Assembly: GCA_044339885.1 (NCBI GenBank)
Contig: JBIIUP010000001.1
Location: 1 to 49,414, forward strand
Source: Pirellulales bacterium
Lineage (GTDB): Bacteria; Planctomycetota; Planctomycetia; Pirellulales; UBA1268
Direction: 5' to 3'
DNA length: 49,414 nucleotides
Part shown: piece after piece, positions 2,665 through 43,200 of the stretch
Layout: each line of letters starts with the position of its first letter
How positions within the stretch are numbered: position 1 is the first letter of the stretch
The notes under the pieces: model-generated
Told to the model about the DNA's origin: nothing
Database searches by the model: none
What the model saw: the letters and a program-made list of their open reading frames with translations, nothing else
Translations under genes and position numbers: made by a program

Positions 2665-2711
2665 GCGAGAAGGTGGTCACGAGCCCCGCCCCCGCGGCCG
2701 CGCCCGCGGCG

Positions 2712-3677: not shown

Positions 3678-3692
3678 CCTACCGGACGCGGT

Positions 3693-7995: not shown

Positions 7996-8041
7996 GGGGC
8001 CGCCGCGGGGCAGGTGAAGAGGACGCGGAAAACCGCCGAAA

Positions 8042-9037: not shown

Positions 9038-9076
9038 GGGAATGCTCCGAGAATTCGGCCGAGAGGTCGCCGCGGA

Positions 9077-9104
9077 CGTCGGCGTCGGTGGACCGACGCC
9101 GACG
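9077..9104. promoter_or_regulatory. perfect 12+12 bp inverted repeat (possible operator or 5'-UTR hairpin) in the pstS/rpe divergent intergenic region
   Basis: CGTCGGCGTCGG-TGGA-CCGACGCCGACG read directly from the sequence. It lies 40-67 nt upstream of the pstS ATG (9037). Confidence 0.45.
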
Positions 9105-9130
9105 TGGCGACGACGTGGTGTATCCGCCGA

Positions 9131-9158
9131 CTGTGAGCGCATCGTGAGGAATCGTGAT
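9131..9158. promoter_or_regulatory. candidate Pho-box-like direct repeats
   Basis: Three direct hexamer-like repeats at 10-11 bp phasing: CTGTGAG (9131), TCGTGAG (9142), TCGTGAT (9152). OmpR/PhoB-family regulators bind direct repeats with about one helical turn of spacing. Located about 100-120 nt upstream of pstS. Confidence 0.3.
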
Positions 9159-9236
9159 TCGGTCGACGCAACCCCTTGCTTCAACTGCGGTTGTGACACG
9201 CCGCCACGACGAACGGCCTCCGGTCGTGCCCGCCGC

Positions 9237-10022
9237 ATGGTAGACTCCCGGGGTTCCGATGTCGGGCACGGTCGCCCGGCTCTTTCCGCGTTTCGGCCCC
9301 ACGTGACAGCCCCGGCAGGACAAGCCTTCGGCCAGGTGACGGCGGCACTCGAGGCCCAGGGCCCGGTCGTGCTGCCGGCGCTGCTGCTCTGCGACTTCGG
9401 CCATCTCGCCCGCGAGGTCGAGCGGCTGGAGGCCGCCGGGGCCACGGCGCTCCACCTGGACGTGATGGACGGCCGGTTCGTGCCGCAGCTGACCTACGGC
9501 CCGGTCGTCGTCGAGGCGGTCCGCAGGGCCGCGAAGGTGCCGCTCGAGGTGCACCTCATGATCGAGCAGCCCGAGCGGTCGCTGGCCGACTACGCGAGCC
9601 TCGGCGCCGACGTGCTCACGGTGCACGTCGAGGCGCTCGCCGACCCGCGGCAGACCCTCCGCACGATCTCGGCTCTCGGCCCCCGGGCCCACCTCGCCCT
9701 CAGCCCGGAGACTCCCGTGGACCGCGTCGAACCGTTCCTCGACGTCTGCGACGGGGTGCTCGTGATGAGCGTCGAGCCCGGTTACGGCGGCCAGCGGTTC
9801 AATCCCGTCGCACTCGCCAAGCTCGCGCGGCTGGCCGACCTGCGGCGGCGCGGCGGCGGGAAGTTCCGCCTGGGCGTCGACGGCGGCATCTCGACGGAGA
9901 CGATCGGCCCCGTCGCGGCGGCGGGGGCGGAGCTCATCGTCGCCGGGAGTGCCGTGATCCGCTCCCGCGACTACGCCCACGCGATCACCGAACTTGAAAC
10001 CCTGGCCCGCGCCGCCGCATGA
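9237..10022 (+). CDS. rpe: ribulose-phosphate 3-epimerase
   Basis: LPALLLCDFGHLAREVERLEAAGATALHLDVMDGRFVPQLTYGP ... HLMIEQPE ... LTVHVEA ... MSVEPGYGGQRF ... LGVDGGIS match Rpe hallmarks. Start uncertain: ATG 9237, or GTG 9336 which gives a more typical length. Confidence 0.9.
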   Translation: MVDSRGSDVGHGRPALSAFRPHVTAPAGQAFGQVTAALEAQGPVVLPALLLCDFGHLAREVERLEAAGATALHLDVMDGRFVPQLTYGPVVVEAVRRAAKVPLEVHLMIEQPERSLADYASLGADVLTVHVEALADPRQTLRTISALGPRAHLALSPETPVDRVEPFLDVCDGVLVMSVEPGYGGQRFNPVALAKLARLADLRRRGGGKFRLGVDGGISTETIGPVAAAGAELIVAGSAVIRSRDYAHAITELETLARAAA

Positions 10023-15041: not shown

Positions 15042-16349
15042 TCACGGAGCTGCCGGTTCGCAGGCGACGGCCGTCGCCTGCAGATCCGGCGCGGACGAGA
15101 AGCAGAATCCCTTGGGAATCACGGTGACTCCCTCCGGCGAGACGGTCAATCCCCGGGCGGCATCCTCGTGGGGGTCGATCCCGATCCTGGCGTTGGCGGG
15201 CACGGAGACACCCTTGTCGATGATCGCCCGGCGGACGACGGCGTGCCGCCCGATGTCGACACCCTCGAAGACGATGCTCTCCTCCACCCGTGCGAAGCTG
15301 TTGACCCGCACTCCCGGGCCGATGATCGAGCGGTGCACGCGGCCGCCGGAGAGGATCGCGCCGGGGCAGACGAGGCTGTCGGTCGCCTCGCCACGGCGGG
15401 CGTCGGGCCCCTCGCCGGCGAACACGAACTTCGGCGGCGGATAGGCGGGATGGTGGGTGCGGATGGGCCACTGCTCGTCGTAGAGGTTGAGCTGCGGGTC
15501 GACCTCGACGAGGTCCATGTTGGCCTCGAAGTAGGCGTCGACCGTGCCCACGTCCCGCCAATAGGCGTCGCGCTTGCGGTTCTCGTCGCAAAACGGGAAG
15601 GCGTGCACGCCGTGGGTCTGGATGACCCGCGGCAGGATGTCGTGGCCGAAGTCGTGGCGGCTGGAGGCGTCGTCCGCGTCGATCCTCAGCTGTTCGAAGA
15701 GGAAGTCTGCCGAGAAGCAGTAGATGCCCATCGACGCCAGCGACAGCGCCGGGTTGCCCGGATACGGAGGCGGGTCGGCGACCTTCTCGCGGAACTGCCG
15801 CACGCGGCCGGAACCGTCGACCTCCATGGTGCCGAACTCACGGGCGGCCGCCCGCGGCACCGGCAGGGCCCCGATGGTCACGTCGGCACCGCTCGCCTCG
15901 TGGGCCTCGACGAGCGACTGGTAGTTCATCTTGTAGATGTGGTCGCCGGCGAGCACGACGACCAGCCGCGGGTCGGCCATCTCCAGGGAGTAGATGTTCT
16001 GGTACACGGCGTCGGCGGTCCCCAGGTACCAGTTCTCGTCGACCCGCTGCTGGGGGGGCAGCACGTCGAGAAACTCGCCGAGGTCCCGGCAGAAGAACCG
16101 GTGCCAGCCGAGGTTCAGGTGGCGATCGAGGCTGCTGGCCTTGTACTGCGTGAGCAGGAGCAGCTGCCGCAGCCCGCTGTTGAGACAGTTGGAGAGCACA
16201 AAGTCGACGATCCGGTAGCTGCCGCCGAAGGGCACGGCGGGCTTCGCCCGGTCGCGGGTCAACGGGTCGAGCCTCGCCCCCTTGCCGCCGGCGAGCACCA
16301 CGGCGACCACATCCCGCATCCGAGTCACGTCGACGTCCCGCGATCGCAT
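15042..16349 (-). CDS. glgC: glucose-1-phosphate adenylyltransferase
   Basis: VVLAGGKGARLDPLTRDRAKPAVPFGGSYRIVDFVLSNCLNSG...LTQYKASSLDRHL...WYLGTADAV plus a C-terminal left-handed beta-helix region. Alternative start at ATG 16319. Confidence 0.95.
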   Translation of the reverse strand: MRSRDVDVTRMRDVVAVVLAGGKGARLDPLTRDRAKPAVPFGGSYRIVDFVLSNCLNSGLRQLLLLTQYKASSLDRHLNLGWHRFFCRDLGEFLDVLPPQQRVDENWYLGTADAVYQNIYSLEMADPRLVVVLAGDHIYKMNYQSLVEAHEASGADVTIGALPVPRAAAREFGTMEVDGSGRVRQFREKVADPPPYPGNPALSLASMGIYCFSADFLFEQLRIDADDASSRHDFGHDILPRVIQTHGVHAFPFCDENRKRDAYWRDVGTVDAYFEANMDLVEVDPQLNLYDEQWPIRTHHPAYPPPKFVFAGEGPDARRGEATDSLVCPGAILSGGRVHRSIIGPGVRVNSFARVEESIVFEGVDIGRHAVVRRAIIDKGVSVPANARIGIDPHEDAARGLTVSPEGVTVIPKGFCFSSAPDLQATAVACEPAAP

Positions 16350-21479: not shown

Positions 21480-22865
21480 TCAGGCGAGCGCGGTGGCCGC
21501 GCGGGCGATCGCCTCGTCGACGGCCGCGGCATCGGCGGCCTCGGCGATGATCCGCACGATCGGCTCGGTGTTGCTGCCGCGGACCAGCAGCCAGCCCCCG
21601 TCCCAGTCGAGCCGCAGGCCGTCGAGGCGATCCGCACGGGCCCCCGGAAACGCTGCCGCGACCCGCTCCAGCGCCGCGGTCAGGGCCGGGCCGCGGGTCT
21701 CCGCCGAGAGGGCGACCTTCGCCTTCCGCATCACCATCCGCGGCAGCCGCCCGGCAAGGTCGGCCACGCGCTGGAGCGTCCCCCCGGCGCACATCCTGTC
21801 GAGGACGAGGGCCATCGCCACGAAACTGTCCCGCACGAGCACGACGCGGGGATCGATCACGCCGCCGTTGCCCTCGCCGCCGATGACGGCGCTCGCCGCC
21901 AGCATCGCGTCGACGACGTTGGCCTCGCCGACCGCGGCGACGTGGCAGGGCACGCCGTGCCGCGCCGCGATCGCGGCGGTCATGCCGCTCGTCGCGCAGT
22001 TCACCACGACCGGTCCCCTGGTCCCGGCGAGCACGCCCTCGACGGCCAGGGCGAGCGTCGCCTCCTCGCCGATGTAGGCCCCGTCGGCCGTCGCGATCGC
22101 CAGCCGGTCGGCGTCGGGATCCTGGAAGAATCCGACGTCCGCCCCGCTCGCCGTGATCCGCGGCAGCATGCCGGCGAGGTTCTCGGCCGTGGGCTCGGGG
22201 TCGTGCTCGAACAGCCCGTCGGGCGTGCCCCCCTCGATGACGAAATCGCAGCCCAGGGTCTCGAACAGCAGGCGGGCGACGCGGCTACCCGCGCCATGGC
22301 CGCTGTCGAGCCAGACCCGCGGCCGGTGCCGCCGGATCGCATCGACGTCGACCGTGGCGGCGACGAGCCGCACATGCTCGGGCCCGACGTCGAAGCCGCG
22401 GACCGTCCCGCGGGGCGTGCCGGAAGGCGGCGCCGCGTGGGCCCCGGACTCGAAGCGGGCGAGCACCCCGCGGCCGGCGGCCGCCGTGAGCACCCGCCCT
22501 TCCGCCGCGAAGAGCTTCATGCCGTTGTAGCGGGCGGGATTGTGGCTCGCCGAGATCTGGATGCCGCCGGCCGCCCCGAGGGCACGGATCGCGATCCCGA
22601 TCGACGGCGTGGCGGCCGGACCGCAGTCGATCACGTCCCGGCCGGCCGCCGCGAGGTGGTCCGCGACCGCGGCGGCGAAGGCGGCGCCGCTCTCGCGGCC
22701 GTCGCGACCGATCACGACGGCGCCCGCGGGCAGCGTCTCCGCGAAGGCCGCCGCGTAGCGGACGGCCACCTCGGGGGTGAGCGTTCGCCCCACGATCCCG
22801 CGGAGCCCGGACACGCTGACGATCAGCGGCTCGGCGGAGGGCGCGGTGGAGGCGGTGTCGCTCAT
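21480..22865 (-). CDS. alpha-D-phosphohexomutase family protein (phosphomannomutase / phosphoglucosamine mutase-like)
   Basis: Active-site ISASHNPARYNGMKLF, Mg-binding FQDPDADRL, sugar loop GGEGNGG, phosphate loop RGSNTEPIVRI. ORF trimmed to ATG 22865 (MSDTASTAPSAEPLIVSVSGLRG). Confidence 0.9.
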   Translation of the reverse strand: MSDTASTAPSAEPLIVSVSGLRGIVGRTLTPEVAVRYAAAFAETLPAGAVVIGRDGRESGAAFAAAVADHLAAAGRDVIDCGPAATPSIGIAIRALGAAGGIQISASHNPARYNGMKLFAAEGRVLTAAAGRGVLARFESGAHAAPPSGTPRGTVRGFDVGPEHVRLVAATVDVDAIRRHRPRVWLDSGHGAGSRVARLLFETLGCDFVIEGGTPDGLFEHDPEPTAENLAGMLPRITASGADVGFFQDPDADRLAIATADGAYIGEEATLALAVEGVLAGTRGPVVVNCATSGMTAAIAARHGVPCHVAAVGEANVVDAMLAASAVIGGEGNGGVIDPRVVLVRDSFVAMALVLDRMCAGGTLQRVADLAGRLPRMVMRKAKVALSAETRGPALTAALERVAAAFPGARADRLDGLRLDWDGGWLLVRGSNTEPIVRIIAEAADAAAVDEAIARAATALA

Positions 22866-22926
22866 GGCAGCCGCGAGTATAAAAGTCCGGCCCGGGTTCG
22901 ACAGGCCCGGCAGAGGAGGATTTACC

Positions 22927-24798
22927 ATGCCCGCGGCTCCCACCGATCCCGTCCAGGCCCGTCGCCTCGAGGCGATCGCCGCTGCCCGATCCTCGGCCGC
23001 CATCACGGCGCACTCCGCCGAGGCGATGGGCAACTGGCTCACGCAGCCGCGGTACGCCGAGTTCGCCGCCGAGCTCGGCGACCGCATCGACCGCGGGCTC
23101 TGGAAGGAGCTCGACGACGCCTTCTGGACCGTGATTCCCTTCGGCACCGGAGGCCGCCGCGGCGTCATGTATCCCGTGGGCTGCAACGCCATCAACGACC
23201 GCACGATCGGCGAGAGCGCCCAGGGCCTCGCCGACTACGTGCGGGGCGTGCTGCCGGCCGGGACGACCCCCTCCTGCGCGATCGCCTACGACACCCGGCA
23301 CCGCTCCGAGCACTTCGCCCGGCTGTGCACCGAGGTGCTCCTGGCCGCCGGCTTCCGGGTGAACTTCCTGCGCGGCCACCGCAGCACGCCCGAGCTCTCG
23401 TTCGCCGTCCGGCACACCCGCAGCAGCTGCGGCATCATGGTGACGGCGAGCCACAACCCGCCCACCGACAACGCCGTGAAGGTCTACTGGGCCGGGGGCA
23501 TCCAGGTCTCGCCGCCGCACGACAAGGGGATCATCGACCACGTCATGCGGATGGAGACGGTGCGGCGCGAGCCCTTCGACGCCGGCGTGGCAGCCGGCCG
23601 CGTGCGGTTCGTCGAGGAGGAGGTCGACCGGGCCTTCGTGGCCGCCGTGCTCGAGCAGTCGACGCCGGGCCCGCGGGACATCTCGATCCTCTACACGCCG
23701 CTGCACGGCGTGGGGGCGACCGCGATCGTGCCCGTGCTCGATGGGGCGGGCTTCCGGCGGCTGCGGCTCTACGGGCCGCACGAAAAGCCCGACGGCGATT
23801 TTCCCAACGTCCCGGGGCACGTGGCGAACCCGGAGAATCCGGCCGTCCTCACCGGCCCGATCGAGGAGGCCCGTGGCCGCGGCGACGACCTCGTGATCGC
23901 CAGCGACCCGGACTGCGACCGGCTCGGCGCCGCCGCGCCGCTCACGGCCGACCCGCGCGGAGAGTGGCGGACGTTCACCGGCAACCAGCTCTGCGGCCTG
24001 CTCTGCGGGCAGGCGATCGCCGGCCGCCGGGCCCGGGGCCTGGCGCGGCCGGGCGACTACGTCGTCACCACGCTGGTGACCACCGGGCTCGTCCGCCGCC
24101 TGGCCGAGGCCCACGGCCTGGAGGTCGACGACGCGGAGCTCGTCGGCTTCAAGTGGATCTGCGCGGCCGTGGACCGGCTCGGCCCCGAGCGGTTCGTGTT
24201 CGGCGCCGAGGAGTCGCACGGCTTCGTGGCGGGCACGCACGTGCGGGACAAGGACGCCAGCGTGGCCGCCCTGCTCCTGGCCGAGCTGGCCGCCGCGCTC
24301 AAGGCCCGCGGCCGCACGCTCCACGAGGAGCTCGACGATCTCTACCTCCGGCATGGCTGCCACCAGGAGCGGCAGATCAACGTCATGCTTCCGGGGGCAT
24401 CCGGCATGGATCGCATGCGGGAGATCATGGCCGCGATCCGCTCCCGTCCGCCGGCCTCGTTCGCGGGCCTGCCGGTGGTCCGCACCCGCGACCAGGCCAC
24501 CCTCACCACCTGGACCCCGGGAGCGGCCCCGACGTCGTACCCGGGCGTGAAGAGCGACCTGGTGCTCTTCGACCTCGGCGGGCTGGACGGCGCCGGGACG
24601 CTGCTGCCTGACGGCCGCTTCCCGGCGCTGAGCAACGCCGTGGCGGCCCGCCCCTCGGGCACCGAGCCGAAGATCAAGTTCTACCTGTTCGCGGTCTCGC
24701 CCCCCGGCCCGGCAGCCGACCTCGCGGAGACCAAGCGGGCGCTGCAGGCGCGGCTGGACGCGATGGAGCGGGAACTGCGTGCCCTGGTGGGCGCGTGA
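22927..24798 (+). CDS. pgm: phosphoglucomutase-type alpha-D-phosphohexomutase (long form)
   Basis: FGTGGRRG, MVTASHNPPTDNAVKVY, ASDPDCDRLG, FGAEESHGF, RPSGTEPKIKFY. ORF trimmed to ATG 22927, preceded by GGAGGA. Confidence 0.9.
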   Translation: MPAAPTDPVQARRLEAIAAARSSAAITAHSAEAMGNWLTQPRYAEFAAELGDRIDRGLWKELDDAFWTVIPFGTGGRRGVMYPVGCNAINDRTIGESAQGLADYVRGVLPAGTTPSCAIAYDTRHRSEHFARLCTEVLLAAGFRVNFLRGHRSTPELSFAVRHTRSSCGIMVTASHNPPTDNAVKVYWAGGIQVSPPHDKGIIDHVMRMETVRREPFDAGVAAGRVRFVEEEVDRAFVAAVLEQSTPGPRDISILYTPLHGVGATAIVPVLDGAGFRRLRLYGPHEKPDGDFPNVPGHVANPENPAVLTGPIEEARGRGDDLVIASDPDCDRLGAAAPLTADPRGEWRTFTGNQLCGLLCGQAIAGRRARGLARPGDYVVTTLVTTGLVRRLAEAHGLEVDDAELVGFKWICAAVDRLGPERFVFGAEESHGFVAGTHVRDKDASVAALLLAELAAALKARGRTLHEELDDLYLRHGCHQERQINVMLPGASGMDRMREIMAAIRSRPPASFAGLPVVRTRDQATLTTWTPGAAPTSYPGVKSDLVLFDLGGLDGAGTLLPDGRFPALSNAVAARPSGTEPKIKFYLFAVSPPGPAADLAETKRALQARLDAMERELRALVGA

Positions 24799-28280: not shown

Positions 28281-30515
28281 TCAGCGGTTGGTCATGTCGC
28301 AGGAGACGCCGCCGGCCGCCGGCACGTAGCAGGCCCGCGCGTAGTCCATCACCATGCGATGCGCGCTGAACCGCCAGGCCAGCGAGCTGATCGAGTTCAT
28401 CATCATGCGGATCCACCGCCGGGGCAGCCCGTCGGCGTCGCGTTCGTAGAACAGCGGCACGACCTCCCGCTCCAGCACCTTGAAGAGCGCCTCGCCGTCG
28501 CGGCGGTCGGTGATCTCGTCGTCGTGGTGCGTCTCGCCCCGGCCGATGGCGAAGCCGTTGCAGCCGTCGAAGGCCTCGGCCCACCAGCCGTCGAGGATCG
28601 AGCAGTTGAGGCCGCCGTTGAGCACCACCTTCTGGCCGCTCGTGCCCGAGGCCTCCAGCGGCCGGCGGGGGTTGTTGAGCCAGACGTCGACGCCCTGCAC
28701 GAGGTGGCGGCAGACGTTGATGTCGTAGTCCTCGATGAAGACCACGCGGCCCGCGAACCGCGGGTCGTTCCGCAGGTTCGCGATCTTGCGGATCAGGGCC
28801 TTGCCCGGCTCGTCGGCCGGGTGCGCCTTGCCGGCGAAGATGATCTGGATCGGCCGGTCGCGGTCGGCGATCAGGGCGTGCAGCCTTTCGAGATCGGCGA
28901 GCACGAGATCGGCCCGCTTGTAGGTGGCGAACCGCCGCGCGAACCCGATGGTGAGAATGTTCGGGTCGAGGACCGTCCGTGCCAGCTCGACGGCCTCGTC
29001 GCACTCGCCCCGCCGGCGGCACTGGCGGGCGAGCCGGCGCCGGACGAACTGGAGGAGCAGGTTCTTCAGCGCGTAGTGCGTCTCCCAGAGCTCCCCGGGA
29101 TCGCACTCGTGGATCTTCTGCCAGATGTCGGGCTCGCCCATGCGGCGAAACCAGTTGGCGGGGAAGATGCGGTCGTAGAGCTGGAGCATCTGCCAGGAGA
29201 GCCAGCTGGGAACGTGGACGCCGTTGGTGATGTGCCCGATCGGCACCTCCTCCTCGATCCGCCACGGCCAGAGATTGGCCCACATCCGCCGGCTCACGTG
29301 GCCGTGCAGCGCGCTGACGGCGTTGGCCCGGCGGGACATCTTGAGGCCGAGCACCGTCATGCAGAACGGCTCGGAGTGGTTGTGGGGCTCGACGCGGCCC
29401 AGCCCCATGAGCTGGTCGTGCGAGATGCCCAGGGAGTCGCGCATCGGCCCCAGGTGCTCCTCCATGAGGCCGCCGTCGAAGCGGTCGTGGCCGGCTGGCA
29501 CGGGCGTGTGCGTGGTGAACACCGTCTGCCGGGCGACCCGCCGAACGGCGTCGTCGAACGGGTAGCCGTCGCGGTCCATCCGGCCGCGCACGGCCTCGAG
29601 CGTCGCGAAGGCCGAGTGCCCCTCGTTGAGATGGTAGACGCCGGGCACGATGCCCATGGCGCGGATCGCCTTCACGCCGCCGACGCCGAGGATCAGCTCC
29701 TGCCGGATCCGCGTGCGGTTGTCGCCGCCGTAGAGCCGGCTGGTGAGCTCGCGGTCCTCGGTCGAGTTGCCCTCGACGTCGGAGTCGAGGAGGTAGAGGC
29801 TGACGCGGCCCACCGCCATCTTCCACACCTTCGCGTGGAGCGGGCCGTTGCGGGTGTCGATCGTCACCTGCACCGGCCCGCCGTCGAGGCCGAGGGCCGG
29901 CTCGATCGGCAGCGCTTCGACGCGGGACTGGAGATATTCCTCGTGCTGGTATCCGTCGATGTCGAGCTTCTGCCGGAAATACCCCTGGTCGTAGAACAGG
30001 CCCACGGCGATGAGGGGGACGCCCAGGCCGCTGGCGCTCTTGATGTGGTCGCCGGCGAGCACGCCCAGGCCGCCGGAATAGATCGGCACCGACTCGTGGA
30101 TGCCGAACTCGGCGGAGAAGTAGACGACCGGCTTCGAGCCGAGCACCCCGGCATGGACCGTGCTCCAGGTCGACTCGGACGTCATGTATTCCTTGAGCCG
30201 CCGGTGCGCCTGGTTGATCCGGCTGTAGAGGACGAGCTCGGCGGCCCGGGCCTCCAGCCGCTCCGGCGTGAACTCGGCCAGCAGCGCGATCGGGTTGTGG
30301 TCGAGCTGCCGCCAACGGATCGGGTCGAGCTCGCGGAACAGGTTGGTCACCTCGGGGTGCCAGCTCCACCACAGGTTCCGGGCCAGGGCGAGGCACTTGT
30401 CGTAGAGGTTCTGAGGGGACAGCTCGTCCAGCCGCAGCGGGGGCAGCCCCAGGGGGGCGGCGGCATTGGCCGCGGCACCGGCGGCGGGCACCGAGACGTC
30501 TTCGGCGTGGCTCAT
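28281..30515 (-). CDS. glgP: alpha-glucan phosphorylase (GlgP family, DUF3417-type N-terminus)
   Basis: LARNLWWSWHPEV..LF..LDP..W....HNP ... YFSAEFGIHESVPIYSGGLGVLAGDHIKSASGLGVPLIAVGLFYDQGYFRQ ... TSGQKVVLNGGLNCSILDGWWAE. ORF trimmed to ATG 30515. Confidence 0.9.
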   Translation of the reverse strand: MSHAEDVSVPAAGAAANAAAPLGLPPLRLDELSPQNLYDKCLALARNLWWSWHPEVTNLFRELDPIRWRQLDHNPIALLAEFTPERLEARAAELVLYSRINQAHRRLKEYMTSESTWSTVHAGVLGSKPVVYFSAEFGIHESVPIYSGGLGVLAGDHIKSASGLGVPLIAVGLFYDQGYFRQKLDIDGYQHEEYLQSRVEALPIEPALGLDGGPVQVTIDTRNGPLHAKVWKMAVGRVSLYLLDSDVEGNSTEDRELTSRLYGGDNRTRIRQELILGVGGVKAIRAMGIVPGVYHLNEGHSAFATLEAVRGRMDRDGYPFDDAVRRVARQTVFTTHTPVPAGHDRFDGGLMEEHLGPMRDSLGISHDQLMGLGRVEPHNHSEPFCMTVLGLKMSRRANAVSALHGHVSRRMWANLWPWRIEEEVPIGHITNGVHVPSWLSWQMLQLYDRIFPANWFRRMGEPDIWQKIHECDPGELWETHYALKNLLLQFVRRRLARQCRRRGECDEAVELARTVLDPNILTIGFARRFATYKRADLVLADLERLHALIADRDRPIQIIFAGKAHPADEPGKALIRKIANLRNDPRFAGRVVFIEDYDINVCRHLVQGVDVWLNNPRRPLEASGTSGQKVVLNGGLNCSILDGWWAEAFDGCNGFAIGRGETHHDDEITDRRDGEALFKVLEREVVPLFYERDADGLPRRWIRMMMNSISSLAWRFSAHRMVMDYARACYVPAAGGVSCDMTNR

Positions 30516-30715
30516 GGCAGGGTTTCCGGACGGGGGTGGGCTGGGAACGCCGGCACGCAGCGGGTCGGAGTATATCCCGCCCCCGGAATGGCCGCGAAAC
30601 CGCCCACCCGCGGCGCCCGGGCCCGGGACGCCTCCGGGCGTGCGGAAAATCTGGCCTTGCAGCCGCCGGGGTCGGCCGCGATCCTTCGCCGCCACTCGAC
30701 GCCCAGGCACCGTTC

Positions 30716-36038: not shown

Positions 36039-36120
36039 TCGGAGGTGTCGCGGGCTTTTTCCGCACCGCGACAGGCCCCGTCGGATCCCCGATCCCAGAC
36101 GGGTGGCGCAGGTTTCACTC

Positions 36121-36193
36121 GGGGGATTAGCTCAATTGGGAGAGCGTCTGGCTGGCAGCCAGAAGGTCAGGGGTTCGAATCCCCTATCCTCCA
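36121..36193 (+). tRNA. tRNA-Ala (anticodon GGC)
   Basis: Folded by hand. Acceptor GGGGGAT/ATCCTCC with the G3:U70 Ala identity pair, D stem GCTC/GAGC, anticodon stem TCTGG/CCAGA with loop CT-GGC-AG, 5-nt variable loop, T stem AGGGG/CCCCT with loop TTCGAAT, discriminator A73. CCA is not encoded. Confidence 0.95.
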
Positions 36194-36311
36194 TTCAAGT
36201 TCCCGACGCCCGCGGGGCCAGCGTGGCCCCTGCGGGCCGATCGGTGAGAGGTCGCCCGCCGGGCGACGCCCGGAGCCATATCGCGGGCCTCGACCGCGAA
36301 CGACAGCGGCC

Positions 36312-37277
36312 ATGGTGATCGACCCCGGCGTTGAGGTGGCGTGGGTCGACGGACGGTTCCTCCCGCGGGCCGATCTCGCCCTGCCCGTGGGCGACGCCGG
36401 ATTCGTGATGGGGGCCACCGTCACCGAGCAGCTGCGGACCTTTCACGGCCGCCCGTTCCTGCTGCCGGAGCATCTCGAGCGGCTGGCGGAGTCGCTCGCC
36501 GTCGTGGGCATCGAGCCGCCCCTCCCGCTCGCCGACTTCGGCTCGGCGGCGGAGGAGGTCGCGGCCCGCAACCACGCGGTGCTCGCCGGTGCCGCATCCG
36601 GCGGCGCGGGCCCCCCGCCGGACCTCGGCCTCGTCGTCTTCGTCACGCCGGGCGACCTGGCGGCACAGCACGGCGGCCGCGGCGGCAGGCCGCGGGCGAT
36701 GATCCACACGTTTCCGCTCGCCTTCACGATCTGGGCCGACGCCTACGAACACGGCGTTTCGCTGCGCAGCGTGACGGTGCGGCAGGTGCCCGAGGCGTGC
36801 TGGCCGATCCGCGCCAAGGTGCGGAGCCGGCTGCACTACTGGCTCGCCGACCGCGAGGCCCACGCGGCCGAACCCGGTGCCCGCGGCGTGCTCGCCCACG
36901 CCGACGGCCGGATCAGCGAGACCTCGACGGCCAACGTCGCGATCGTGTCGTCCGGTGTCATCCACGCCCCTCCCGCCTGCGACGCGCTCGTCGGCGTGAG
37001 CCTCGGTCACGCCCGGCGGCTCGCCGCGGCCCGGGGCCTCGGCTGGCGGGAGCGGTCGCTCACCGCCACCGATCTCGCCACCGCCGACGAGATCCTCCTC
37101 ACGAGCACGCCCAGCTGCATCCTGCCGGCCACGCGATTCGACGGCCAGCCCGTCGGCGCCGGCACGCCGGGACCGGTCTTCCGTGGTCTGCTCGACGCCT
37201 GGAACCTCGACGTCGATCTCGACATCGCCGCCCAGGCCCGGGCCTGGCGCGGCCGACCCGCCCGGTCCGCGTCCTGA
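36312..37277 (+). CDS. aminotransferase class IV (branched-chain/D-amino-acid aminotransferase or ADC lyase-like)
   Basis: VAWVDGRFLPRADLALPVGDAGFVMGATVTEQLRTFHGRPFLLPEHLERL ... ISETSTANVAIV ... GVSLGHARRLA ... ADEILLTSTPSCILPATRFDG are fold-type IV hallmarks. ORF 36045..37277 trimmed to ATG 36312 because its 5' part overlaps the tRNA. Confidence 0.85.
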   Translation: MVIDPGVEVAWVDGRFLPRADLALPVGDAGFVMGATVTEQLRTFHGRPFLLPEHLERLAESLAVVGIEPPLPLADFGSAAEEVAARNHAVLAGAASGGAGPPPDLGLVVFVTPGDLAAQHGGRGGRPRAMIHTFPLAFTIWADAYEHGVSLRSVTVRQVPEACWPIRAKVRSRLHYWLADREAHAAEPGARGVLAHADGRISETSTANVAIVSSGVIHAPPACDALVGVSLGHARRLAAARGLGWRERSLTATDLATADEILLTSTPSCILPATRFDGQPVGAGTPGPVFRGLLDAWNLDVDLDIAAQARAWRGRPARSAS

Positions 37278-37536
37278 AGCACCGACGTCGAGCCCCCGGG
37301 CGGCGCGGCCCGCGGCGGCCGGCATTGCCCGCGGCGGCCAAACCGTCATACTGTCCGTGTTCGGGGGGGGTGTTCATCGACCTGACATCTTCGAGCCTGC
37401 GCACCCGTTGGCCTCCCCGCCCGTAGCGTTCCTGGAAATTTAACCCTTTTCGGAGCCTCTTTGATCGACGGCGGGCCGAAGCCCGTCGCGCTCGCGCCGC
37501 CGTCTTCCCGACGGGGGCAACACTCGGAGGTGGATC

Positions 37537-38292
37537 ATGCACTTTCTCCTGGCCAACGCGGCGAACACCGCCGCCCTGTCGATGGACTTCACCAAGAATG
37601 CCGACATCCTGCAGTCGATCACGCTCTACCTGTTCTTCGCCGGCACCGTCGCCATGGGGGCCGGTGCCCTCTACTTCTTCCTGCTGCGCGACGACGTCGA
37701 CCCTGCCTACCGCAGCGCGATGGTGGTGGCGGGGCTCGTCTGCGCGATCGCCTGCTTCCACTACTACAAGATGACGGCCGTCTACCAGGCGGGCGGACAG
37801 TTCCCCACCGCGCTGCGGTACATCGACTGGCTGTTCACGACGCCGCTGCTGCTCGTGAAGTTCCCCCTGCTGCTGCGGATGGGCGAACGCGGGGCGAAGT
37901 TCTTCTGGCAGCTCGTCATCCTGGACGTCGCGATGATCGTCACGGCCTTCATCGCCGAGACCTCGGTGGTCGACTCGCAGCGGTGGTGGGGCTTCTTCCT
38001 GGTCTCGTGCCTCTTCGAGGCGTTGATCGTCGGGACGCTCTACCTGCAGCTCGGCCAGTCGATCTCGGAAGCACCCGCCCCGCTGGCCAGGGCCCTGGAG
38101 ACGATGCGTCTGTTCGTCCTCGTCGGCTGGGCGATCTACCCGATCGGCTTCCTCATGGCCCGGTCGGGATACGGCGAGCTCCGCGAGATCGTCTACAACG
38201 TCGCCGACGTGATCAACAAGGTGGGTTTCGGCCTCGTCGCCTACCACGGCATCAAGGCCCTGGGCTCCGATTACGGCCGACGCGGCCACTGA
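37537..38292 (+). CDS. microbial (type 1) rhodopsin, proteorhodopsin/xanthorhodopsin-like, D97-T101-K108 motif
   Basis: 251 aa with seven hydrophobic helices. Helix B FHYY (His75). Helix C RYIDWLFTTPLLLVKF. Helix F VGWAIYPIGF. Helix G ADVINKVGFGL, with the Schiff-base Lys at 228 (codon 38218-38220) and Asp224. GGAGG lies 6 nt upstream of the ATG. Confidence 0.93.
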   Translation: MHFLLANAANTAALSMDFTKNADILQSITLYLFFAGTVAMGAGALYFFLLRDDVDPAYRSAMVVAGLVCAIACFHYYKMTAVYQAGGQFPTALRYIDWLFTTPLLLVKFPLLLRMGERGAKFFWQLVILDVAMIVTAFIAETSVVDSQRWWGFFLVSCLFEALIVGTLYLQLGQSISEAPAPLARALETMRLFVLVGWAIYPIGFLMARSGYGELREIVYNVADVINKVGFGLVAYHGIKALGSDYGRRGH

Positions 38293-38313
38293 GCAGCGCA
38301 TGAGCGGCGCATC

Positions 38314-38348
38314 GGCCGGCCCGCCCGCCTGACCGCGGCGGGCCGGCC
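38314..38348 (+). promoter_or_regulatory. intercistronic GC stem-loop between rhodopsin and blh (possible attenuator or mRNA-stability element)
   Basis: GGCCGGCCCGCC (38314-38325) and GGCGGGCCGGCC (38337-38348) form a perfect 12-bp stem with an 11-nt loop. There is no downstream T-run. The GGAGG for blh follows at 38357. Confidence 0.5.
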
Positions 38349-38369
38349 TGCCCGCCGGAGGTGGCCCGC

Positions 38370-39461
38370 ATGACGTCCTCGTGCATCCCCGCGGCGGGAG
38401 CGTTCCAGGACGCGGCCTTCCGCCGGCTGCCGCTGGCCGTGATGCTCGCCTCCGCGGCGGCGTGCCTGGCCTGGGGGCCGGGCTGGTCGGTGCGGGCGGC
38501 CCCCTGGCCGTGGCTGGCCTCGCTCGCCGTGGTCGGGCTGCCACACGGTGCCGCCGACCTCGCGGTCACGCGGCGGCTGCTGGGGCGGACTGGAGTCCTA
38601 TGGCTCTTCGTCGGTTATACGGCCATCATGCTCCTCGTCGGCGCGGCCTTCGCGACCTGGCCGGCGACCGTGCTCGCCTCGTTCCTCGCGCTGAGCGGCT
38701 GGCATTTTGGCGCCGCGCATGCCGACGGCCAGTCGCCTCCGCTGCGGCGACGCCCCGGCGGGCTGTTCCTGGCGGCCGTCGCGCGAGGCGCCTCCGTGAT
38801 CGGCATGCCGCTGGCGGCGTGGCCGGAGGCGGCGGCCGAAGTCGCCCGGTCGCTGGCGGCCCTCGCCGGGACGGATTGGGTGGCCGATCCGGCCGCGATC
38901 CGCTCGGCCGGCACCGCCTGCGTGGCGGTCGGCGCCGCCTCCCTCGCCGCCGAGGCCTGGTCGACGCGGCAGGATCCCGGCGGGCCGGGCCGCTCGCTGG
39001 CGACGCTCGGCGAACTCGCCGTCTTCGGCGGGCTGGCGGTCGTCGCCGACCCGCTGTTCTCCGTGGGGACGTACTTTCTCTGTTGGCACGCCTGGCGGCA
39101 GATGCGGCTGCTGGCCCCGGTGATCGGCGCGACGCCGATCCAAGACGCCCGGTCGCTCGCCCGGGCCCTCGGCGAGATCCACCTCGCGGCGCTGCCGCTG
39201 CTCGTCCCCACATGGGCGGCCCTCGCCGCCCTCTGGTGGCTCGTGCCGGCCGCCCACTCGACGCGCGGACTGGCCATCCTCTCGCTGGCGGTCTACATCG
39301 TCGTCACGCCGTCGCACGACCTGCTGAGAGACTGGTGGCGGTCCCGGACGACCTCCGACGAGGCCGCCGGCCGCCGCCCACGGCGGCAATCCGCCGGATC
39401 GCACGGCGGCGGCACGCTCCGCCCCCGAGCCGGAGCTACCCAGAAGTCCAGTGCGCCCTAG
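38370..39461 (+). CDS. blh: Brp/Blh family beta-carotene 15,15'-dioxygenase (retinal synthase)
   Basis: Polytopic membrane protein with the spaced His motifs of this family (GLPHGAADL, SGWHFGAAH, CWHAWRQM, TPSHDLL), sited immediately after a rhodopsin gene. Start set at ATG 38370 (GGAGG 8 nt upstream); the ORF track starts at GTG 38361. It has an R/S/G-rich C-terminal tail of about 40 aa. Confidence 0.8.
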   Translation: MTSSCIPAAGAFQDAAFRRLPLAVMLASAAACLAWGPGWSVRAAPWPWLASLAVVGLPHGAADLAVTRRLLGRTGVLWLFVGYTAIMLLVGAAFATWPATVLASFLALSGWHFGAAHADGQSPPLRRRPGGLFLAAVARGASVIGMPLAAWPEAAAEVARSLAALAGTDWVADPAAIRSAGTACVAVGAASLAAEAWSTRQDPGGPGRSLATLGELAVFGGLAVVADPLFSVGTYFLCWHAWRQMRLLAPVIGATPIQDARSLARALGEIHLAALPLLVPTWAALAALWWLVPAAHSTRGLAILSLAVYIVVTPSHDLLRDWWRSRTTSDEAAGRRPRRQSAGSHGGGTLRPRAGATQKSSAP

Positions 39462-39611
39462 CTGGAACAAGTCTGCCGGAGCAGGGATGCGACGACGGCC
39501 CCTCGGTGTTTTCACCGGTCGGCGCAGTGGATAAAGGCCATGGATGGCTTTTTCCACGGGCAGCTAGACTGCCGGCTTTCGCCGGAGGCCCGCACGCCGC
39601 GCGGGCACGCC

Positions 39612-40259
39612 ATGAACGCCCTGAAGGCCCTACTCGACGTCTTCCTGCACCTCGACGAGCATCTGCACGGGATCATCGAGGCCTGGGGGCCTTGGACCTA
39701 CGTCCTGCTCTTCGCCATCATCCTCTGCGAAACGGGCCTGGTGGTGACCCCGTTCCTGCCGGGGGACTCGCTCCTGTTCGCCGCCGGGGCCATGGCGGCG
39801 CTCTACCCCGACGACCTCAACGTCGTCCTCCTCCTGGGGCTGCTCAGCGTGGCCGCGATCCTCGGCGACACGCTCAACTACGCCATCGGCCGCTGGCTCG
39901 GCCCGCGGGCCTTCAAGATCGACCGCTGGTTCCTCAAGCACGAGCACCTCGAGCGGACGCGGGCCTTCTACGAGCGGCACGGCGGCAAGACGATCGTGCT
40001 GGCGAGATTCGTGCCGATCGTCCGCACCTTCGCCCCGTTCGTGGCCGGCGTGGGGAGGATGAACTACCCGCAGTTCCTCTTCTACAACGTGGCGGGCGGG
40101 ATCGCCTGGGTGCTCATCTGCACGCTCGCGGGCTACTTCTTCGGAAACATCCCGGTCGTGAAGGAGAACTTCGAGCTCGTGGTGGTCGGCATCGTGCTGG
40201 TGTCGGTGCTGCCGATCGCCTGGGAAGTCCTCTCCGCCCGGCGCCGCGGCCGCCGGTGA
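39612..40259 (+). CDS. dedA: DedA family membrane protein
   Basis: WTYVLLFAIILCETGLVVTPFLPGDSLLFAAGAMAA ... LGDTLNYAIGRWLG ... HGGKTIVLARFVPIVRTFAPFVAGVGRMNY are classic DedA/SNARE-associated motifs. ORF trimmed to ATG 39612. Confidence 0.9.
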   Translation: MNALKALLDVFLHLDEHLHGIIEAWGPWTYVLLFAIILCETGLVVTPFLPGDSLLFAAGAMAALYPDDLNVVLLLGLLSVAAILGDTLNYAIGRWLGPRAFKIDRWFLKHEHLERTRAFYERHGGKTIVLARFVPIVRTFAPFVAGVGRMNYPQFLFYNVAGGIAWVLICTLAGYFFGNIPVVKENFELVVVGIVLVSVLPIAWEVLSARRRGRR

Positions 40260-40287
40260 ACCGGCCGCGGCCTCCCGCCGGCGTCCG

Positions 40288-43200
40288 CTACCGGAGCCGC
40301 GCCGCCGTCTCGTCGAACACCCGGTCGAATTCGGCGCGGGTCCGCGCCGTGATCGACTGCACTTCCGCCCCGAGGGCATCGGGCGGGTCGTAGCCGAGCA
40401 GCTGCGCCAGCTTCCGCCGCTCGTCCGGCGCCGCGGGGAAGTCGTGGCGGGCCGGCGCGTCGAGGAGCCGCAGGCGGCCCTCGATCGCCCGCAGCGTGCG
40501 GTAGGCCCGCTCGAGGAACGCGAACCGCTCGTCGTCGAGGTGGCCGGCGGCGTGGAGAGCGTGGAGGGCGGCCGACGTCCGCGTCGTCCGCAGCCGCTCG
40601 TCGGCCCCGCCGTGCACGAGCTGGAGCACCTGGGCGATGAACTCGATGTCGACCACGCCGCCGGGACCGCGCTTGAGGTTCGTCGCCTGCGCCCCCTCCT
40701 CCATGCGCCGCCGCATCCGCCGGATCTCCTCCACATGTTCGGCCCGCCAGCCGTGGCCGTAGCTCGCCGCCACGATGATCCGCTCGGCCTCAGCCCGCGC
40801 GGCAGGCGCCGCCACGACGACCCGGGCCTTGAGGAGCGCCTGCCGCTCCCAGACGGCCGCGGGGCCTTCCGGGGCGAAGTAGCGGCCGAACTCGTCGAGC
40901 GAGATCGCCGGCGAGCCGCTGCGGCCCATGGGCCGCAGCCGGGAGTCGAGCTCGTAGAGCCGCCCCTGCGGCCCCAGCCCGTTGCACGCCTTGGCCGCGC
41001 GGAGCGCCAGCTCGCCGAAGAAGTGGGCGTTCGTCGTGCTCCCGGTGTCCCGCGCCCGGCGGCGGTGCGCGCAGACTCCGTCGTGGTCGTAGAGGAAGAC
41101 GACGTCCACGTCGCTGGCGTAGTTCATCTCGCGACCGCCGAACTTCCCCATGGCGAGGACCACGGGCTCCGCCGGCGCGGCCGCCTCCCCGCCGCCGACC
41201 GTCGGCTCGCCGAAGCGGTCGACGAGCGCCGCCCGCTCGGCGGCCACGACCGCCCGCAGGATCGTCTCGGCGATCGCGGTGAGCGCGGCGGTCGTCGTCT
41301 CCGCGTCCTGCTTGCCGAGGATGTCCCGCACGCCGACCCGCAGCTGCTGCGAGGCCTTGAACGCGTGGAGGATCGGCGCGCGGTCGGTGGCCCCGCGGGA
41401 GAGCTCGTCGAGGCCCGCGGCCAGGTCCTGTGGGGTGGGCAGCCGGTCGACGAGCAGGCTGTCGAGCAGCTCGTCGATCATGCCGGGGTTGCCGACGAGG
41501 AGCCGGGCCAGGAACGGGCTCGACGAGCAGAGCCGCACCGTGAGGTCGAGCGACGGGGGATGGAAGCTCAGCAGCTCCCAGAGCACCCCCTTGCCGCCGA
41601 GCGACCCGGCCACGGCGCCGAGGTTCACGAGCGTCGCGTCGGGGTCGGGCGTGCGGCCGATGGCGGCCAGGAGGCGGGGGGCGATCGCGGCGAGGAAGTG
41701 GCGGCAGCGGCGGGAGGAGAGGAAGCGGACCCTCTCCTCGCCGAGGTCGACCAGCGCGCGATGCGCCGCCGTCACGTCGCGGAATCCGTGGCGGGCCAGC
41801 ACCTCCCGCACCCGCTCCGCCGGCGGGTCGGGATCGAGCACGAGGTCGACCTCGGGCTCGGGCCGCTCGTCGTCGGGAAAGGCGTCGTGGAGCAGGTGGT
41901 CGAGGATCCTGCGATTGAGGTCCGTCGCCTCGGCGAGCCTGCGCCGCAGCCGGTCGCGGCCGTCGGGGCCCGTGCCGAAGCCCAGTCGCACGGCCAGCCG
42001 GCCGAGCTCCTCGTCGCCGGCGGGGAGCCGGTGCGTCCGCCGGTCGTAGAGGATCTGGAGGCGGTGTTCGACGGTCCTCAGCAGCGTGGAAGTCCGCTCG
42101 AGGATCTCCCGCTCCTGGTCGGTGAGGCTCCCGGTCTCGGCGAGCCGGCGGATCGCCTCCAGCGTGTTGCCCGTGCGGACCCGGGGCGTGTCCCCGCCGC
42201 CGAGGAGCTGGAGGAACTGGATCGTGAACTCCACGTCGCGGATGCCTCCCCGGCCGTGCTTCACGTCGGACCCGTCGGTGCCCGCGCGGATCGCCTGCTG
42301 CTCGATCCGCCGCTTGAGCGCCTTGATGCCGGCGATGTCGGCCCGCGTCAGCCAGCGCCGGTAGACCCAGGGCTCGAGCTCGGCGAGCAGCCGCCCGCCC
42401 AGCCGCTCGTCGCCGGCGACGCAGCGGGCCTTGATCCACGCCTGCCGCTCCCAGGTTCGGCCCTCGCGGTCGAAGTACTGCAGCATCGCGTCGAGGCCCA
42501 GCGACACGGCGCCGGCGTTGCCGTGCGGGCGCAGCCGCAGGTCGACGCGGTAGGCGGCCGCCAGGTCGGTCGTCTCGGCCAGCAGCCGCACCGTCTCCTG
42601 CACGACCCGCTCGAAGAACTCCTGGTTCGTGCCCGGCTTCGGCCCCTCGACCCGGCCGTCCGCCGAGTGGACGAACACCAGGTCGATGTCGCTGGAATAG
42701 TTGAGCTCGCCCCCCCCGAGCTTCCCCAGCGCGATCGCGGCGATCGTCGCCGGGCCACCCCCCGGCTCCCGCGGGATCCCGCGCCGCTGCCCGACGCCGG
42801 CGAGGGCCGCGGCGAGCGCCGCCTGCACGATGCAGTCGGCAACGTGCGACAGCTGCGCGGCGACGGTCTCCAGCGGCAGCCCGGCCACCACGTCGCCGTA
42901 GGCGATCCGCAGCGTCTGCCGCCGCTTGAACCGCCGCAGGGCCCGCATCACGCCCTCCGGTTCGTGGAGCGGCCCGACCTCCGCGGCGAGCGCGGCGGCC
43001 AGGCTCTCGCGCTTCTCGGGACGGCCCTGCCCCACGCGGACCTGCTCCCACGACTCCGGATCGGCGATGACGATCTCGGCGAGGTACGGGCTGGCGGAGA
43101 AGATCCGCAGGAGCGTCTCCAGGGACCGCGGATCCCGCTCGCAGAGCGTGCCGACGGCCAGCGGGCTGCGGACGGCCCCGACGAAGCGTTCGAGGGCCAC

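Follow-up and report, generated by a model that had tools for sequence, protein, structure and literature searches.

A predicted outward proton pump of the ESR type, with lysine at the proton-donor position, in a freshwater planctomycete

The closest described systems are the rhodopsin of Exiguobacterium sibiricum (ESR) and its orthologue E17R from Exiguobacterium sp. S17. Both are proven outward H+ pumps with absorption at 524-534 nm (531 nm for ESR and 524 nm for E17R), and both carry an Asp-Thr-Lys (DTK) motif in a KFPLLL context identical to the one described below. In ESR, Lys96 is the donor; swaps of this lysine for Glu or Asp are still functional, and K96 replacement slows M decay (PMC8387761). 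Similar donor swaps show that ESR and proteorhodopsin (PR) can use Lys, Glu and Asp interchangeably; in PR the E108K mutant stays functional with Lys as its donor (PMC8387761). Lys96 is deprotonated in the dark, and Asp85, His57, a water and Glu214 form a network (PMC11155677). The 'DTK pumps' have been treated as one deep PR-related group, for which KFPLLL and LRE are the motifs described (PMC10519204).

Opsins with this motif have also been seen in lakes. He et al. (bioRxiv 10.1101/2022.08.01.502354) place DTK opsins of freshwater Planctomycetes, from lake MAGs, in an 'ESR branch' (see also PMC13043013 and, for DTK opsins in freshwater Planctomycetes, PMC10519204), and 'green-light rhodopsins' of freshwater Planctomycetes are reported in PMC6461901. 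These opsins come from the same kind of organism and the same habitat and carry the same motif as the rhodopsin presented here; He et al. and PMC6461901 are sequence surveys without biochemistry. Below we show how a locus from a Pirellulales bacterium compares with these systems.

The window, i.e. the whole stretch of DNA that was analyzed, measures 49,414 nucleotides and has a G+C content of 73%, which results in long spurious open reading frames in all frames. The rhodopsin gene (Table 1) is picked out as a real gene by its frame-specific composition (GC3 0.94, GC2 0.41), which resembles that of the neighbouring genes. Its product matches the Pfam model PF01036 (Bac_rhodopsin) with an E-value of 1.4e-44; NCBIfam has no model naming it. 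An AlphaFold2 model built with 40 homologues (mean pLDDT 90.6) contains seven long transmembrane helices, and its top Foldseek match is the ESR structure 4HYJ (TM 0.81-0.88, identity 42-44%). The protein has the seven-transmembrane microbial-rhodopsin fold, with the Schiff-base lysine in helix G (K228 within DVINK). The Shine-Dalgarno octamer GGAGGTGG in front of the gene precedes blh as well. A scan of positions 37200-40400 revealed no sigma-70-like promoter, and every 'terminator' that it returned was located inside coding sequence.

Other genes in the window are ordinary housekeeping genes. They include a pst operon, rpe, glgC, two PGM/PMM genes and an alpha-glucan phosphorylase, as well as uvrC, ligA, glnE, a MiaB-like radical-SAM enzyme, fmt and def. 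The rhodopsin gene agrees in GC3 with its neighbours (0.86-0.97), and related MAGs show synteny for the class-IV aminotransferase and DedA genes on its flanks. Nothing points to recent horizontal import, and the gene is a resident of a freshwater planctomycete's chromosome. The identical protein call is found on 12 metagenome contigs from lake samples, and the window's DNA was detected in approximately 20 lake-water metagenome runs. Metatranscriptome contigs from two aquatic datasets are about 98% identical to the gene over 156-222 nt. Given their small length, their origin in near relatives and a possible carry-over of DNA, they are weak evidence that the gene or a very close relative is transcribed.

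Table 1. Features of the rhodopsin-blh locus. Positions are those of the window; ESR residues are those paired with the rhodopsin in the alignments; fractions are counts among the 121 family sequences.
Feature	Position	Strand	ESR residue	Evidence
Shine-Dalgarno GGAGGTGG, 3 nt upstream of the rhodopsin ATG	37526..37533	+		sequence reading
Rhodopsin gene, predicted ESR-type 'DTK' proton pump (251 aa + stop)	37537..38292	+		PF01036, 4HYJ match, AF2, Foldseek
His75 (CFHYYK), partner of the Asp97 counterion	37759..37761	+	H57	119/121
Helix C segment RYIDWLFTTPLLLVKF, residues 94-109 (R94...F109)	37816..37863	+		translation, HMMER, MAFFT
Arg94	37816..37818	+	R82	translation, ESR alignment
Asp97 (GAC), Schiff-base proton acceptor (BR D85, GPR D97)	37825..37827	+	D85	121/121
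Trp98			W86	local alignment
Thr101 (ACG; BR T89)	37837..37839	+	T89	121/121
Leu105 (CTG), green/blue switch position (GPR L105)	37849..37851	+	L93	Leu 109/121, Met 9/121
Lys108 (AAG), cytoplasmic proton-donor position (BR D96, GPR E108)	37858..37860	+	K96	Lys 115/121
Glu141, extracellular Arg/Glu cluster	37957..37959	+	E130	121/121
Glu161 (GAG), carboxylate at the ring-contact Trp position (GPR W159, BR M145)	38017..38019	+	W154	121/121
Arg216-Glu217 in the 'LRE' motif, putative proton-release end of the network	38182..38187	+	R213-E214	ESR alignment, family conservation
D224-V-I-N-K228: second counterion Asp (BR D212) and retinal Schiff-base Lys (BR K216)	38206..38220	+	D221, K225	alignments
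Phe231			F228	local alignment
Ala235			A232	local alignment
GC-rich hairpin, 12-14 bp, in the 77-nt rhodopsin-blh spacer	38314..38348	+		z = -1.5
blh (Brp/Blh beta-carotene 15,15'-dioxygenase, 363 aa), retinal-forming	38370..39461	+		Pfam BCD 5.6e-36; TIGR03753

A first-pass annotation, made from the sequence alone, had aligned helix C by eye to bacteriorhodopsin (BR) and green proteorhodopsin (GPR) and read a DTK motif, D97-T101-K108, with the lysine codon AAG at 37858-37860. The motif proved exact to the base. Asp97, Thr101 and Lys108 match ESR D85, T89 and K96 without gaps, which gives Asp-Thr-Lys at BR positions 85, 89 and 96. In the HMMER alignments helix C is ungapped both against ESR (RYIDWLFTTPLLLVKFPLLL against RYIDWLVTTPLLLVKFPLLL, with 19 of 20 residues identical) and against a PR (RYVDWVLTVPLMCVEF, ...PLMCVEF). 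A MAFFT L-INS-i alignment of 124 sequences, including ESR, GPR, XR, Kin4B8 and BR, puts K108, ESR K96, GPR E108, XR E107 and BR D96 in one column, and in the rhodopsin this column holds the lysine and no carboxylate. Comparison of the reference sequences with the PDB showed 100% identity for BR and XR and, for GPR, a difference in one signal-peptide residue. A register shift placing a carboxylate at the donor position appears neither in the HMMER pairwise alignments nor in the MAFFT alignment, and the register read by eye holds against ESR, GPR, XR and BR alike.

When the rhodopsin was compared with all PDB sequences, ESR (4HYJ) came out as the best match (E 3.3e-50, 174 bits), followed by a group of proteorhodopsins and MacR at approximately 117-121 bits. 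In the reciprocal search, with ESR as query, family members score 180-220 bits and no PR is present within ESR's top 60. By bit score, Foldseek and reciprocal search the rhodopsin is closer to ESR than to PR, XR or BR. The local alignment with ESR shows 46% identity across 221 residues and pairs the proton-path residues given in Table 1. The mapped ESR proton-path residues, 14 positions from H57 to A232, are 95-100% conserved in the 121 family sequences; in the ESR literature they cover the counterion pair, the Lys96 cavity and the Asp85-His57-water-Glu214 exit path (PMC11155677, PMC8387761). Each residue of the extracellular cluster R94/E141/R216/E217 (ESR R82/E130/R213/E214) is 99-100% conserved, and the second counterion Asp224 (ESR D221) is present in 121 of 121 sequences, alongside His75. 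The sole mismatch among the ESR proton-path residues that were checked is Thr43, which adjoins Lys96 in ESR and is Ala61 here; in the family this column holds Thr in 55, Ala in 38 and Val in 22 of the 121 sequences.

With ESR and E17R the rhodopsin has in common the His partner of Asp85, Leu at the colour switch, the R82/E130/R213/E214 set, D221/K225 and the seven-transmembrane fold. Of the motifs described for the DTK pumps, LRE occurs as L215-R216-E217, and KFPLLL stands in helix C, where it continues as FPLLLR and not as FPLLLG (ESR Gly102 is Arg114 here); at that site the family has Arg in 88 and Gly in 11 of 121 sequences. The B-C loop is shorter than in ESR by six residues, and the D-E and F-G loops are shorter too. 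The ring pocket is altered (Trp154 to Glu161 and Tyr to Phe205), and a blh gene adjoins the rhodopsin gene. While ESR comes from a Firmicute, the rhodopsin belongs to an uncultured, Gram-negative planctomycete of lakes, with 73% GC.

From the fold, the residues and their conservation, the linkage to blh and the relatives, all of which are observed, we infer ion, direction, colour and the role of Lys108: judged by its sequence and by analogy with ESR, the protein is most likely a retinal-binding, green-absorbing, light-driven outward H+ pump of the ESR/'DTK' branch of the proteorhodopsin superfamily. The first-pass annotation had left the choice between an ESR-like outward pump in a distant lineage and a functionally different subgroup; with ESR the closest in sequence and fold and the proton path conserved, the former alternative is favoured. 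It had also recognized His75 as the conserved partner of the counterion and Leu105 as the residue at the green/blue switch, both of which agree with the alignments. The predicted green absorption follows from Leu at the L/Q switch together with the measured maxima of ESR and E17R.

A search of 5.8 billion proteins returned 302 clusters (90% identity) at E <= 1e-10. The best 120 of these 302 clusters are 55-99% identical to the rhodopsin; their named sources are Planctomycetia, Planctomycetaceae, Pirellulales, Gemmataceae and Lacipirellulaceae MAGs and the cultured Stratiformator vulcanicus. The query and these 120 closest clusters form the 121-sequence family alignment. Its donor column contains Lys in 115 sequences, Thr in four, Gln in one and Asp in one, followed by Phe109 in 121 and Pro110 in 120 of the 121. 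Scanning one genome per GTDB species gave 303 stretches encoding relatives. The best 80 of these 303 come almost exclusively from Planctomycetota MAGs of lakes or rivers, and a few, at 57-60% identity, are from Verrucomicrobiota; some labels among the relatives, such as 'Kuenenia' and 'Chitinophagaceae', look like binning or naming noise. The window has its closest genomes among lake MAGs of Pirellulales and Planctomycetia. In 83 of 86 related loci, mostly from lake Planctomycetota MAGs, DTK is followed by FP, and always as KFP; one of the remaining three reads DTQ, and in the other two the pattern matched an unrelated site first. Because the lysine is kept in 115 of 121 family sequences and in 83 of 86 loci, Lys108 is not a chance occurrence.

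These counts go against the rarity of DTK that the first-pass annotation had implied: the lysine is family-wide, the ESR/DTK branch is known and DTK opsins of freshwater Planctomycetes have already been reported. The annotation had also allowed for DTK rhodopsins turning out to be both common and characterised in close relatives. Common they are, but the nearest characterised protein is ESR, at approximately 46% identity; our literature search found no characterised DTK rhodopsin outside Exiguobacterium, and no experiment on this rhodopsin or on any planctomycete homologue.

The origin of the lysine was analyzed with a wider sample. An exhaustive search of 50%-identity representatives gave 1176 clusters at E <= 0.001. 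Approximately 100 full-length representatives include at least 21 additional DTK clusters, and in some of these N, S, A or M replaces the His partner. The clusters nearest to ESR among the sequences compared are a mix of DTV, DTK, DTM and DTI, followed by the planctomycete family. In a neighbour-joining tree (Kimura distances, 225 columns, 200 bootstraps) the planctomycete clade has a bootstrap value of 94 and the XR clade is solid. The backbone joining ESR, the other DTK groups and PR has less than 20% support, and the planctomycete clade and ESR are not sisters. Parsimony tests were carried out on trees rebuilt without the donor column. Of 200 bootstrap trees, 199 have continuity of Lys on the path from ESR to the query among their most-parsimonious reconstructions. 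A break in this continuity requires one additional step in the main tree and in 69 of 100 bootstraps, while the other 31 of 100 allow a non-Lys ancestor on the path at the same cost.

Had the lysine arisen independently of that in ESR, an origin for which the first-pass annotation had left room, the mechanism of ESR would not be transferable. The unsupported backbone, the absence of a sister relation and the 31 trees with an equally parsimonious non-Lys ancestor all fit such a convergence. It has to be set, however, against the KFPLLL and LRE motifs common to the rhodopsin and ESR, the lower cost of Lys continuity in the main tree and in most bootstraps, and the further DTK clusters nearby, and we consider it unlikely. 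Parsimony and the common motifs make common descent of the lysine in the planctomycete family and ESR the better reading, though not a proven one given the backbone support below 20%. Within the large planctomycete-rich family itself, which by similarity belongs to the known ESR/DTK branch, Lys is, on the aligned sequences, the ancestral state.

The blh gene starts 77 nt past the stop codon of the rhodopsin gene, and its product scores 129 bits against TIGR03753 (cutoff 95). The hairpin in the spacer is not significantly more stable than shuffled sequences (z = -1.5), and no T-run comes after it. The arrangement, with blh immediately downstream of the rhodopsin gene and in the same orientation, recurs in 74 of 86 related loci, practically all of those whose sequence extends far enough. 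Blh itself diverges far more than the rhodopsin (30-55% against 75-88% identity across related loci). Both genes are probably co-transcribed, with Blh supplying retinal from beta-carotene; no crt genes are present in the window.

The neighbourhood also bears on whether the protein is an energy-conserving pump at all. Proteo-SRs (YTM motif) are the closest described relatives of the DTK pumps, to which they are deeply related and with which they have FPLL and LRE in common (PMC10519204), and a photosensor related to them could be imagined here. Proteo-SRs, however, carry Tyr instead of the Asp counterion and Met in the donor position, and a gene for an Htr-like transducer adjoins theirs (PMC10519204), whereas the rhodopsin has Asp97 and Lys108. 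The window contains no transducer or che gene within approximately 37 kb upstream or 11 kb downstream, and blh is the only conserved functional partner. A sensory role is accordingly very improbable.

GPR, a DTE pump, resembles the rhodopsin in its His-Asp counterion pair, Leu105, fold and even numbering (D97, T101, L105 and position 108). Nonetheless it has Glu at 108 within EFYLIL, against Lys within KFPLLL, it is 29% identical and scores 117 bits (against 174 bits for ESR), and its Trp159 stands where the rhodopsin has Glu161. With Lys108 the protein lacks the donor Glu of a proteorhodopsin sensu stricto. Xenorhodopsin-type inward pumps have lost the BR-D212 aspartate and the cytoplasmic donor and are close to XeR/ASR. 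The rhodopsin keeps D224, and xenorhodopsin structures match it with an E-value of only 3e-18, against 3e-50 for ESR; the earlier argument that Asp224 speaks against a xenorhodopsin-like inward pump is borne out. For any other direction or ion, be it inward H+ transport of the xenorhodopsin kind or Na+ or Cl- pumping, there is nothing specific, apart from the general point that motifs alone cannot fix function with certainty. The motif is DTK and not NDQ, NTQ or TSA, and both counterion aspartates and the His partner are in place, which together with the distance to xenorhodopsins renders such a function extremely unlikely. A fenestration for a carotenoid antenna was considered as well, as Gly152 ('WWGFF') resembled XR Gly156 ('LWGF'), but was rejected on the helix E alignment: the ungapped helix, anchored at Ser157-Cys158, puts the invariant Phe154 at XR G156/BR W138, and no fenestration is predicted.

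If the outward pump works as ESR does, all-trans retinal would be bound to Lys228 as a protonated Schiff base, balanced by Asp97 (salt-bridged to His75) and Asp224. Photoisomerisation would transfer the Schiff-base proton to Asp97, giving the M state. Lys108, which would be uncharged in the dark because it is situated in a dehydrated cytoplasmic half-channel (a proposal taken from ESR), would then take up a proton from the cytoplasm and subsequently give it to the Schiff base. This order, uptake before transfer, would be the reverse of that in carboxylate donors. Late in the cycle the proton of Asp97/His75 would leave via water and the Glu217/Arg216/Glu141/Arg94 cluster to the outside, with Arg216-Glu217 at the putative release end according to the role of ESR E214 (PMC11155677).

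The lysine is apparently not strictly required, as a few family members have T, Q or D at position 108; these natural variants, and a sister cluster with a Glu donor (P0121, Phycisphaerales), fit the donor interchangeability seen in ESR and PR. The same six of 121 sequences, the V, M or I at the donor site in the clusters nearest to ESR, and the lack of conservation of ESR Thr43 could also be taken to mean that Lys108 is no true proton shuttle in an outward pump. The Schiff base would then be reprotonated from the solvent as in the donor-less DTG/DTS pumps (family defined in PMC8927995), and Lys would have a structural or gating role. The rhodopsin has Lys108 and not the Gly or Ser of that family, however, Lys is kept in 95% of its own family with an invariant KFP context, and the residues that surround the lysine in ESR (A47, F228 and A232) are retained. 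In ESR the lysine does act as donor, its replacement slowing M decay (PMC8387761). We regard a non-shuttling lysine as quite unlikely, and a donor role of Lys108 remains the preferred reading.

A comparison of the family's invariant residues with five references (ESR, GPR, a second PR, XR and BR) yields ten family-specific positions, the most striking of which is Glu161. Its column is ungapped and lies three residues past the conserved Cys158. In GPR the equivalent Trp159 packs on the beta-ionone ring at its C18 methyl and forms a hydrogen bond with the backbone of helix F (PMC10807816), and at this site nearly all of the other 102 aligned sequences have W, F, Y, M or L. Other changes in the pocket and its packing are Phe205 for Tyr (Trp189 in BR) and Ala137 and Ala140 for Gly. 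The Glu-donor sister cluster has Ala137, Ala140 and Phe205 as in the family, but Trp at 161.

Since the ionone-ring pocket differs from that of ESR (Glu161, Phe205), colour and kinetics may deviate from ESR, and Glu161 adds some uncertainty to a simple 'green' prediction. It is conceivable, though rather doubtful, that the planctomycete DTK rhodopsins are a functionally distinct ESR-type subgroup, which combines the Lys donor with a second buried ionisable residue, Glu161, in a remodelled pocket. If so, the colour could be shifted or the preferred chromophore could be another one, or Glu161 and the Lys donor could be coupled electrostatically over a long range. Glu161 may also simply play a part in packing. 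Our literature search found no paper on a carboxylate at the BR-M145/GPR-W159 site, and the accessible parts of He et al. and PMC6461901 mention neither Glu161 nor the pairing of rhodopsin and blh. Glu161 is an unreported oddity of this rhodopsin family, as far as this search goes.

Summarizing, the motif, the branch and its occurrence in Planctomycetes are already in the literature, and the discovery value of the locus in that respect is small. ESR has so far been essentially the sole biochemical model of "breaking the carboxyl rule", i.e. of Lys as internal proton donor. The Lys donor is, however, no curiosity of Exiguobacterium: it is the conserved state of a large family, which comprises more than 300 clusters (90% identity) and, in the genomes retrieved, approximately 80 at species level. 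In lake Planctomycetota, which are abundant, and in some Verrucomicrobiota, this family is linked to a retinal-synthesis gene of its own. It offers natural variation for the tuning of a Lys donor, with K, T, Q or D at the donor position, T, A or V where ESR has Thr43, and a sister group whose donor is Glu, and it points to rhodopsin phototrophy in freshwater planctomycetes.

Alignment of the rhodopsin with its 120 closest clusters shows that Glu161 is invariant throughout the family (121 of 121 sequences), whereas the characterised reference rhodopsins carry Trp159 (GPR), Trp154 (ESR) or Met145 (BR) at this position. The residue at this site, Trp159 in GPR, packs against the ionone ring of retinal (PMC10807816). 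Among the remaining 102 aligned sequences position 161 is occupied by W, F, Y, M or L almost throughout. Phe205, Ala137 and Ala140 of the rhodopsin are likewise specific to the family.

The nearest sister within the well-supported planctomycete clade is the cluster of protein P0121, from Phycisphaerales MAGs, with 55% identity. Its donor site is Glu (LMEFPLLL) and position 161 is still Trp, and therefore K108 with E161 in the family can be set against E108 with W161 in P0121, although this is one contrast only (n = 1) and does not by itself demonstrate covariation.

The downstream blh gene (38370-39461) is much less conserved than its neighbour: compared with loci L007-L086, identities are 30-55% for Blh against 75-88% for the rhodopsin in the same genomes. 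The spacer between both genes holds a GC hairpin (see the table), which might set the rhodopsin:Blh expression ratio. No T-run is present 3' of this hairpin, and by folding energy it is not significantly more stable than shuffled copies of the same GC-rich stretch. An A+T-richer patch, likely the promoter region of the gene, precedes the rhodopsin start by about 70-110 nt; a promoter scan of 37200-40400 did not find a sigma-70 consensus there.

Features located in the window
Feature	Position	Strand	Remarks
Phosphate-uptake operon	1969-9445	-	phoU, pstB, two permease ORFs, pstS
glgC	15042-16349	-	near the two phosphoglucomutase/phosphomannomutase-family genes
Phosphoglucomutase/phosphomannomutase-family gene	21480-23204	-	divergent from the next
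Phosphoglucomutase/phosphomannomutase-family gene	22777-24798	+	divergent from the previous
Alpha-glucan phosphorylase	28281-30710	-	near the same two genes
Class-IV aminotransferase, longest ORF	36045-37277		downstream of the tRNA
tRNA-Ala (GGC)	36121-36193	+	
A+T-richer patch	37425-37470		GC 0.57-0.68 (window 0.73); contains TTCCTGGAAATTTAACCCTTTTCGG
Glu161 codon	38017-38019		
GC hairpin	38314-38348		near-perfect, stem of 12+2 bp; between rhodopsin stop and blh start (77-nt spacer)

The longest ORF of the aminotransferase runs across the tRNA-Ala, the sole RNA gene found in the window, so the real start must lie further in; gene callers place it at about 36312. The longest ORFs of the two phosphoglucomutase/phosphomannomutase-family genes share about 430 nt, and because of this overlap their true starts are probably internal. 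Together with the nearby glgC and alpha-glucan phosphorylase genes, this pair suggests a loose neighbourhood of glycogen-metabolism genes. Both permease ORFs of the phosphate-uptake operon are very long (560 and 876 aa), with the BPD_transp_1 match confined to their C-terminal parts. This length could reflect genuine long N-terminal extensions, or else start-codon artefacts in such GC-rich DNA.

A DTK rhodopsin is also found in a separate subgroup: P0135 (RYVDWTVTTPLLLAKFPD), encoded at locus L087 on a 6.1-Mb contig, has Ser at the His-partner position. Its gene is without an adjacent blh and adjoins a prepilin-type N-methyl/SBP_bac_10 gene, of a kind typical of Planctomycetota/Verrucomicrobiota.

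In the clusters most similar to ESR among the sequences compared (P0137, P0133, P0136, P0142 and P0143) the donor residue is non-protonatable (DTV, DTM, DTI) and the His partner is mostly replaced by Asn, Gln or Ser. The donor Lys is naturally replaced by Asp in cluster P0109 (DTD), by Gln at locus L064 (DTQ) and by Thr in four DTT clusters among P0001-P0120, with the surrounding xFP context otherwise conserved in all of these. They could be used as a natural donor-swap series.
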